From NCBI RefSeq assembly GCF_988242995.1, contig NZ_OZ547043.1: a stretch of 64,000 nucleotides of DNA; one strand, given 5' to 3'. A program made the translations under genes and the position numbers. Position 1 is the first letter of the stretch, and every line of letters starts with the position of its first letter. The notes beneath the pieces are model-generated. The model had not been told where the DNA came from and did no database searches. It saw only the letters and a program-made list of their open reading frames with translations. This document shows positions 56,976 through 57,544 of the stretch, piece by piece.

Positions 56976-57544
56976 GTCGATCCCCTGACAAGGAAATGTG
57001 CACTATGGACATCAACGCGTCATAAATGTTTACGCAAGTGCACAATGCACCCTTTCCACTATCAACAAGGAGGAGCAGAAACTGTGTAAATCGTACAATG
57101 GTAAGACTTATCAAAAATACAGGTTAATTTTGGTATTTAAACCTTTTTTACTTGTTAGTATGATACAAAGGCTTTCAAAAAAGCTGGGAAATTCAACAAC
57201 TCTTGGAAATTATGGACTTTGTCCCGCGGCTTTAATCTGACGGCCGCGTTCCTTTTTTGACTCAATTATTGACCCCTTCTCTACGCAACTTCAGTTCCCA
57301 CCACCAACTTTGCGGCAGTTTCATAGGATGAATGTCTAAAAGAATAATGGTGAGCGATAAGAAAACGACTGAATAACTGCACATTTTCGCTCGAAAGCTT
57401 CCTGTCAGATCCATAGCGAATCAAGTGCTGAATGTCACAGTATCGAACAGAAAACAGTGACGATCTAACCCTTCAAGAATATTCTACGATTGTTCTGTTT
57501 AGGAAAAGCAAGGCGGGAAGTCGGGAGATAAGTCATTGATAAAG

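Follow-up and report, generated by a model that had tools for sequence, protein, structure and literature searches.

A probable Hfq-binding small RNA gene of mobile-element ancestry at the orphan terminator between yodB and serU of Escherichia coli

The interval between yodB and serU is considered here in a 64,000-nucleotide stretch of contig NZ_OZ547043.1 (RefSeq assembly GCF_988242995.1), hereafter the window, which contains the zinT-yodB-serU-mtfA-asnT region of Escherichia coli; adding 1,985,923 to a window coordinate gives that of NC_000913.3. A hairpin in this interval is probably the terminator of a free-standing, independently transcribed Hfq-binding small RNA (sRNA), a domesticated member of an sRNA family carried by mobile elements. 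As proposed, the gene would have a sigma-70-type promoter of its own, and its RNA would begin with a hairpin, continue through a middle region that stays single-stranded and close with an invariant GGACUUUGUCC hairpin and a U-tailed terminator. Its RNA would most likely be a low-abundance base-pairing regulator, for which the candidate partners so far are the ompF and mreC mRNAs. An ancestral gene may have been acquired beside the phage attachment site of serU before E. coli and E. albertii separated. The E. coli lineage would then have kept the gene under constraint, with the family promoter and 3' scaffold preserved and a different middle region, and E. albertii would have lost the RNA body.

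The hairpin begins 250 nucleotides (nt) beyond the yodB stop codon, which ends at 56975. An earlier reading made from the letters of the DNA alone (the sequence-only reading) had described a GC stem with a T-rich tail about 250 bp downstream of yodB and without an annotated gene before it, and this description is accurate. The stem, CGCGGCU/GGCCGCG, has seven pairs (six G-C and one G-U), encloses a 10-nt loop and is followed by UUCCUUUUUU; the tract directly 3' of the stem, TTCCTTTTTT, has its last base at 57258. There are no annotated features between yodB and serU in NC_000913.3, and annotation beneath the matching unit is absent from all 5,417 E. coli genomes that carry it. The hairpin was overlooked by a simple terminator scan because its loop exceeds the 3-8 nt that the scan admits. 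Term-seq data place a transcript 3' end at 2043181(+), with the flanking sequence AATTATGGACTTTGTCCCGCGGCTTTAATCTGACGGCCGCGTTCCTTTTTTGACTCAATTA (Adams et al. 2021; PMC7815308, supplementary file 1). This position corresponds to window 57258, the last U of the tract, and thereby supplies the transcript end near 57255 on which the sequence-only reading had made its suggestion depend. Adams et al. (2021) assign this end to their "orphan" class; two of their three condition tables list it, one with a score of 2,241 and the other with 1,864. Because a transcript 3' end maps to its U-tract, the hairpin is more than a chance structure; with both a GC stem-loop and U-tract and an in vivo 3' end within that tract, it is a working terminator.

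The RNA that ends here associates physically with Hfq in vivo, both in RIL-seq, a ligation-based sequencing of RNA interactions, under at least two conditions, and in ultraviolet (UV) crosslinking, ligation and sequencing of hybrids (CLASH). In the RIL-seq feature table of Bar et al. (2021; PMC8175672), which was built on the data of Melamed et al. (2016), the intergenic region (IGR) entry yodB.serU.IGR shows one partner and 39 chimeric fragments for exponential phase, and two partners and 33 fragments in a second condition sheet. From its SIC scores, 0 at k = 1 and 0.5 at k = 2, it follows that the RNA is always second in the chimera. This is the position typical of sRNAs. The associated U-tract length of 6 fits the terminator hairpin and not the serU trailer. 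The exponential-phase partner is most plausibly ompF, as k = 15 and an SIC of 0.094324 match the ompF row only. By Hfq UV-CLASH, a fragment designated "int-1073-1", at 2043157-2043181(+), was found ligated to mreC (Iosub et al. 2020; PMC7213987); it represents the last 25 nt of the RNA and ends on the same base as the Term-seq 3' end. Regulation of targets by base pairing seems plausible, with ompF and mreC serving only as leads. A whole-molecule fold of the ompF duplex gave an unrealistic structure and was rejected. The idea of a GcvB sponge, raised by a CAACAAC motif in the middle region, was set aside because ompF is the only RIL-seq partner listed.

A simpler account would make the hairpin a plain yodB terminator, its 3' end closing a long yodB 3' untranslated region (UTR), possibly with an Hfq-binding U-tailed fragment. 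The hairpin lies on the same strand as yodB, neither the sequence nor the scan revealed any other terminator-like structure between the yodB stop codon and 57225, and the Term-seq "orphan" class explicitly takes in long 3' UTRs (Adams et al. 2021; PMC7815308). The distribution of the unit nevertheless renders this account quite improbable. At 95% identity or more, 5,417 of 5,426 E. coli genomes carry the unit (median, one place per genome), whereas a query that includes the end of yodB is matched over at least 80% in just 3,063 of them. Because it is retained, almost unchanged, in the roughly half of E. coli that lacks yodB, the unit is not merely a yodB 3' UTR. In these genomes zinT is followed by about 220 nt of other sequence and then by window sequence from 57098 onward, and zinT has its own terminator upstream; one such strain is identical to the window over 57121-57259. 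Conservation likewise begins at a promoter-like site at 57136 and not at yodB. Among 11 diverse E. coli genomes, the 124 nt of 57136-57259 have four variable sites, all of them singletons, against eight in the 38 nt of 57098-57135 and 22 in the 151 nt of 57260-57410, many of the latter fixed between two deep haplotypes. The flanks together have 30 variable sites in 189 nt, and on both sides they are 5-7 times more polymorphic than the unit. Moreover, the same arrangement of promoter, RNA and terminator occurs in phages and on a plasmid with no yodB nearby. Read-through from yodB that ends at the same terminator is possible in strains that carry yodB.

The mobile-element homologues define an RNA family to which the E. 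coli unit belongs. An initial search of phage and plasmid records returned short 3' matches, which extended to the whole of 57102-57258 under permissive scoring. Permissive blastn against L093, L094 and the L095 interior (Table 1) gave 64-68% identity over approximately 157 nt, and global alignments gave 75-81%. In phages, the unit is flanked by Q and the tRNAs and, at its other end, by holin S, on the strand opposite the late genes, and exact-pattern scans recovered it from about 115 prophage contigs. An alignment of 39 unique sequences shows a -35 box TTTAAA and a -10 box TAGTAT, TAATAT or TATGAT in register, preceded by the shared sequence TAAGACTTATC...AGGTTAAT. The sequence of the 5' hairpin varies across the family, and the middle region is fairly constant among phages and unlike that of E. 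coli. The GGACUUUGUCC hairpin and the terminator loop UUAAUC(C/U)GAC are invariant, and three pairs of the terminator stem covary while this loop stays fixed.

A covariance model, R1, was built from 14 phage sequences with the E. coli copy excluded. It has a single match in the window, at 57178-57259 (53.6 bits, E 1.5e-11), a score that derives mostly from the 3' module, with the 5' hairpin left unaligned by the model. K-12 and a yodB-less strain are matched equally, the plasmid copy is matched at 44.9 bits, and 101 matches in prophage contigs represent 38 distinct sequences. Across these 101 matches the 16 pairs of the structure are paired in 96.7% of cells, compared with 39-57% in slid controls; five pairs carry changes on both sides, and none of 500 shuffles reaches the observed score, although these counts lean towards the model, the alignment having been fitted to R1 and the search patterns having fixed part of the 3' module. 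Phage-type copies are present in 262 of the 5,426 E. coli genomes, where they are either unannotated or lie under "hypothetical protein" calls. The Rfam scan that the sequence-only reading had proposed brought no family match: cmscan against Rfam 15 returned nothing at 57100-57260 (E up to 10) or at the homologous positions in L093, L094 and L095 (E up to 1).

The E. coli copy thus shares with the phage and plasmid copies the promoter boxes, a 5' hairpin, the GGACUUUGUCC hairpin, a covarying terminator with a fixed loop, the U-tail and a length of about 80-90 nt. It differs in the sequence of the 5' hairpin and in the middle region, which is GGGAAAUUCAACAACUCUUGGAAAUU in E. coli and CCAAUACUUAUUAUUCUUCA in most phage copies. 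It is also single, fixed in the species and outside any prophage, and it lacks both a 32-amino-acid (aa) open reading frame (ORF) on the opposite strand and a second downstream module that accompany phage copies. This second module, a GGAC(U/A)UUGUCC hairpin with a terminator of different stem, follows phage and plasmid copies. Some prophage contigs additionally carry a divergent full paralogue about 1 kb away, in which the stem is altered once more and the small hairpin and loop sequence are kept. Second modules and paralogues are represented by L093 2575-2620, L094 2548-2613, L107 1961-2041 (- strand) and L119 4465-4545 (- strand).

Two further elements adjoin the phage copies. Matches to STnc100 that fall short of the threshold (about 22-23 bits, the cut-off being 47) are placed tail-to-tail with them (L093 2629-2825 and L095 8463-8656, both on the - strand) and fit the PasD/STnc100-type RNAs reported from this prophage region. 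The 32-aa ORF, MKNNKYWPPSGDMFILLSFRSGLNPQINLNFR, lies opposite the phage copies in the direction of the late genes, just upstream of holin S (L093 2462-2400, - strand, with equivalents in prophage contigs). With a ratio of non-synonymous to synonymous polymorphism (pN/pS) of 0.23-0.40, it may be an unannotated small phage protein that overlaps the sRNA gene, but in several lineages, as in the plasmid and E. coli, its frame is shifted or the ORF is missing. As an explanation of conservation in the window it was dropped, the ORF being absent from the E. coli copy.

The remaining parts of the gene are predicted. Transcription would start at about 57169-57171 from a promoter that aligns with the conserved TTTAAA and TAGTAT boxes of the phage copies and has, among the 11 E. 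coli genomes, one singleton single-nucleotide polymorphism (SNP), located in the spacer. The RNA may then form an independent unit with its own promoter. Its predicted fold has a free energy of -23.3 kcal/mol (z = -2.2), and at the position of the 5' hairpin the phage copies have a hairpin of other sequence with compensatory C-G/U-A changes. The GGAC-UUU-GUCC hairpin recurs in the second modules downstream of phage and plasmid copies and in the divergent paralogue.

The sequence-only reading had also pointed to a possible 26-codon frame at 57160-57240 without a ribosome-binding site. That frame is open and no Shine-Dalgarno sequence precedes it, but as a small ORF it finds no support: its ATG sits in the predicted -10 box, upstream of the predicted start of transcription, the three SNPs within it among the 11 E. 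coli genomes are all non-synonymous, and the phage copies have no counterpart. A seven-codon frame, MDFVPRL (57213-57236), is open as well, and its ATG and TAA are found in most phage copies. However, about one-quarter of the family copies are without this ATG (CAC for CAT before GGAC), the plasmid copy has CTG, the second modules form the hairpin with no ATG at all, and here too a Shine-Dalgarno sequence is absent. That either frame, and hence a small protein, accounts for the locus is scarcely credible. The three readings originally entertained for the hairpin have accordingly fared differently. The 3' end, the Hfq reads, the conserved promoter-like site, the conservation above that of the flanks and the covarying family all favor an unannotated sRNA, the small ORF is unsupported, and a long yodB 3' UTR is not the whole story given that the unit is kept without yodB. 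The phage and plasmid ancestry and the convergent overlap with serU described below go beyond that reading.

Homology to prophage sequence beside a phage integration site, together with low expression and the loss in E. albertii, might suggest a decaying prophage remnant that yields only transcriptional noise, its conservation reflecting low local diversity or recent spread. This is very doubtful in view of the 5-7-fold greater polymorphism on both flanks, with fixed differences between the two deep haplotypes, and of the presence of the unit in 5,417 of 5,426 genomes with its promoter, hairpins and U-tract all intact.

The sRNA gene is convergent with serU, and transcription from the two sides overlaps. 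Double-stranded RNA (dsRNA) captured with p19 includes a cluster, S-166, at U00096.2 2,041,159-2,041,583, which belongs to the top 15 of the overlapping small RNAs and for which tRNA-locus read-through was given as the cause (Huang et al. 2020; PMC7373196, Table 1). When converted to window coordinates, this cluster starts where the GGAC hairpin has its base and extends as far as the serU 5' end. The conversion takes U00096.2 coordinates to lie, presumably, 1,976 below those of NC_000913.3 at this position; the serU 5' end then converts to 2,041,581, beside the published cluster end of 2,041,583. The span indicates that + strand transcripts run past 57258 and across serU, and that serU read-through reaches at least the 3' module of the sRNA. 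It thus implies that the tRNA gene is also transcribed in antisense and that RNase III cleaves the resulting duplex. The left edge may mark either the point at which serU read-through ends at the hairpins, acting as a bidirectional terminator, or a + strand 5' end at about 57212, that of a processed 3' fragment.

These data bear on a further alternative, in which the two-hairpin module is mainly an insulator or bidirectional terminator between convergent units (the + strand transcript and serU read-through on the - strand), the RNA is a by-product with no role in trans and Hfq binding occurs through the U-tail only. The dsRNA cluster, attributed as it is to tRNA read-through, ends exactly at the base of the module; the phage module is similarly placed between convergent features, with the STnc100-like match on the other strand; and the RNA is scarce, with few RIL-seq partners. 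On the - strand, however, the hairpins are followed by AUAAUUUCC and not by a U-tract, and the Term-seq tables list no - strand 3' end at 20430xx-20431xx. An insulator would also leave unexplained the conserved promoter, 5' hairpin and middle region in E. coli, as well as the invariant loop with covarying stems and the steady second place in Hfq chimeras, and E. albertii gets by without the module. This alternative is regarded as unlikely.

Several observations do weigh against a free-standing sRNA. The RNA is of low abundance, its Term-seq scores of about 1,900-2,200 comparing with about 600,000 for DsrA in the same table, and the 3' end at 2043181(+) went undetected by Term-seq in lysogeny broth (LB) at an optical density (OD) of 0.4. 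The classifier of Bar et al. gave it low sRNA scores of 0.010 and 0.046, with one or two partners. The ompF duplex predicted by a windowed scan, a 10-bp match between the middle region and ompF +120..+145, is no better than chance, several chance occurrences being estimated at this search size. The 5' end is a prediction, and the promoter scan by itself performs at chance level (three sites found, 3.1 expected). Family-wide conservation, the promoter region included, could partly reflect the opposite-strand 32-aa ORF of the phages. Finally, the dsRNA cluster starts at 57212 and not at 57170, which leaves room for a processed 3' fragment as the abundant + strand species, or for a module that serves mainly as a terminator between convergent units.

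Table 1. Features of the yodB-serU interval, with homologous copies on mobile elements. Coordinates are those of the window unless an accession is given.
Feature	Coordinates	Strand	Description and basis
Predicted sigma-70-like promoter	57136..57164	+	-35 TTTAAA 57136-57141, 17-nt spacer, -10 TATGAT 57159-57164; consensus scan
Predicted ~89-nt small RNA	57170..57258	+	5' end predicted, 3' end mapped (Term-seq, CLASH, RIL-seq)
5'-terminal hairpin	57170..57185	+	GGCUUU-CAAA-AAAGCU; minimum free energy fold
Middle region, candidate seed	57186..57213	+	GGGAAAUUCAACAACUCUUGGAAAUUAU, mostly single-stranded; fold; part diverging from phage copies
Small family-invariant hairpin	57214..57224	+	GGAC-UUU-GUCC; 38/38 distinct sequences, an invariance that is partly ascertainment, as search patterns included the motif
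Intrinsic terminator	57225..57258	+	Stem 57225-57231 / 57242-57248, 10-nt loop of the UUUAAUCUGA type, then UUCCUUUUUU; sequence, fold, mapped 3' end
Block homologous to prophage and plasmid copies	57102..57258	+	Promoter, RNA and terminator; permissive blastn, covariance model
Escherichia phage vB_EcoS-683R6 (lambdoid)	ON470595.1, L093 2398-2548		Homologous copy
SerU-LTIIb prophage interior	KU052038.1, L095 8232-8381		Homologous copy
pCFSAN001015, Salmonella IncF plasmid	CP074597.1, L094 2390-2546		Homologous copy
serU, tRNA-Ser(CGA)	57545..57634	-	Convergent with the sRNA gene; ARAGORN, Rfam
dsRNA cluster S-166	57212..57636	both	Converted: +1,976, then -1,985,923
12-mer AATGTGCACTAT, first copy	56335..56346	+	Upstream of yodB
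12-mer AATGTGCACTAT, second copy	56995..57006	+	Downstream of yodB

Literature searches returned no named sRNA for the yodB-serU IGR and no relevant occurrence of the GGACUUUGUCC motif. Among the closest known RNAs in kind are the Pas sRNAs (PasA, PasB, PasC and PasD1/2) of enteropathogenic E. coli (EPEC) prophages, which were found by RIL-seq and of which PasA is reported to have a seed that overlaps its terminator (Pearl Mizrahi et al. 2021, PMC8550237; Zhu, Shabalina & Storz 2026 preprint, 10.64898/2026.05.13.724894). Like the RNA described here, they are Hfq-associated, about 80-170 nt in length and end at intrinsic terminators, and they are intergenic in lambdoid prophages by holin and lysozyme genes with STnc100-like RNAs nearby. 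Identity with PasA-D was rejected: the pasA intergenic region of phage YYZ-2008 has no sequence similarity and no R1 match, the published probes or coordinates of PasA, PasB and PasC are without the family motif, and the PasD/STnc100-like element lies alongside as a distinct feature of the opposite strand. Furthermore, the Pas genes are accessory, reportedly missing from K-12 and 88% of E. coli (Zhu, Shabalina & Storz 2026), whereas the yodB-serU gene is found in essentially all E. coli.

EcsR1 and EcsR2 offer a second comparison, as intergenic RNAs of about 100-170 nt and low expression that occur in all E. coli and not in neighboring genera; EcsR1 is stabilized by Hfq, and their origin has been connected with rearrangement or with DNA of phage descent (Raghavan et al. 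2015; PMC4350180). They reside at other loci (uspF-ompN and yagU-ykgJ) and have other sequences, and identity with either was rejected. Unlike these two, the yodB-serU gene has identifiable, extant phage and plasmid homologues of its whole length, promoter included. IpeX, an sRNA of the DLP12 prophage, reportedly represses OmpC and OmpF, an effect said to have been described by Castillo-Keller et al. in 2006. It is alike in being a prophage-associated sRNA, in mapping to the Q-to-lysis region of a lambdoid element and in its connection with ompF. It was rejected as a relative on the basis of a model search, not a direct sequence comparison, in which R1 found no match in the quuD-nmpC-essD region of the K-12 DLP12 prophage and its sole match in that search was one of 15.8 bits near ybcW.

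The phylogenetic range of the locus was surveyed at 80 Enterobacteriaceae loci located via MtfA. Homology stops at the serU 3' end everywhere but in E. coli and E. albertii. In a cryptic Escherichia clade the serU 3' flank consists of a major facilitator superfamily (MFS) transporter gene and an AMP nucleosidase gene (L006 637-3509), and in Citrobacter of a porin gene and a short-chain dehydrogenase gene (L011 1135-3672); because these neighboring genes differ, absence from either group is uninformative with respect to loss. The zinT-serU junction is specific to E. coli and E. albertii, which fits repeated rearrangement at serU. The 3' end of serU is itself an integration site for prophages and islands, as seen from the integrase genes alongside it in L088-L090 and from the SerU-LTIIb prophage. 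In E. albertii, the flanks 57098-57147 and 57415-57543 are kept, the sequence between them is about 110 nt shorter and R1 finds no match. What remains includes the promoter-side segment of the family, and the simplest history is therefore acquisition before the split of E. coli and E. albertii, with later deletion of the RNA body in E. albertii. Of the possible directions of transfer between mobile elements and the chromosome, acquisition by the chromosome is the one presumed here.

The surroundings of the gene have features of their own. The 134 nt that adjoin the serU 3' end (57411-57544) have one variable site among the 11 E. coli genomes and 84% identity to E. albertii, and are far more conserved than 57260-57410. 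The - strand of this segment folds no better than shuffles (z = +1.8); a tRNA trailer or terminator, the context of an integrase attachment site and dsRNA formation are candidate causes of its conservation. yodB is a presence/absence polymorphism, in which about 990 bp (yodB and flanks; 56107-57097) give way to about 220 bp that for the most part cannot be aligned in approximately 44% of E. coli genomes (compared with L002 2779-3000). E. albertii carries the yodB-less arrangement, and a 2024 paper treats yodB as a clone marker in sequence type 410 (ST410). A perfect 10-bp inverted repeat, TACAGACACG...CGTGTCTGTA, at 56193-56225, 90 nt after zinT, corresponds to the hairpin that, with a T-run behind it, terminates zinT in E. 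coli without yodB and in E. albertii; the T-run is reduced in the haplotype that has yodB.

An 11-mer noted earlier on both sides of yodB is real and in fact a 12-mer, AATGTGCACTAT. Its two copies are the only ones in the window, and it is weakly unusual, 9 of 100 shuffles having at least two matches at one mismatch or fewer. It has no shown link to the hairpin and lies off the yodB breakpoints; a deletion or insertion scar of yodB was ruled out, the haplotype breakpoints being at about 56107 and 57097. Three GTGCAC (ApaLI-type) palindromes surround yodB (56338, 56998 and 57040), and the arms 56329-56344 and 57037-57052 are 81% complementary. The unit is not a dispersed repeat of the repetitive extragenic palindromic (REP), bacterial interspersed mosaic element (BIME) or miniature inverted-repeat transposable element (MITE) kind, as the window has no further copy and genomes have a median of one place. 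Elsewhere in the window, upstream of zinT, 55194-55259 has a sub-threshold Rfam match to naRNA4 on both strands (35.8 bits against 59.5), such as a palindromic repeat of REP type produces.

The K-12 genome is the most heavily curated of bacterial genomes, yet this locus is unannotated in RefSeq despite a signal in four independent published datasets (Term-seq, RIL-seq, CLASH and p19 dsRNA capture). If it is what it appears to be, it provides a concrete and datable case of a mobile-element sRNA that became a core-genome gene, having entered at a tRNA attachment site, been fixed in E. coli and been deleted in E. albertii. Conservation of the scaffold with exchange of the seed bears on the evolution of prophage sRNAs, the 2026 Pas survey having found K-12 to be without Pas genes, and a new RNA family outside Rfam 15 is now open to modelling and annotation. 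More speculatively, the gene could be a domesticated phage sRNA "cassette", with its promoter, 5' hairpin and GGACUUUGUCC-plus-terminator scaffold kept and its seed swapped, which now regulates envelope genes (ompF, mreC) across the species in an Hfq-dependent manner and forms duplexes with serU read-through that RNase III cleaves; this is a tentative proposal. Were it true, the scaffold, which lambdoid phages and IncF plasmids carry with other seeds, would amount to a modular sRNA chassis that is exchanged horizontally, and the invariant loop UUAAUCCGAC, together with the small hairpin, would bind a specific partner. As serU is a hot spot for pathogenicity islands and toxin phages, insertion of an island there may also affect the expression of the adjoining sRNA.

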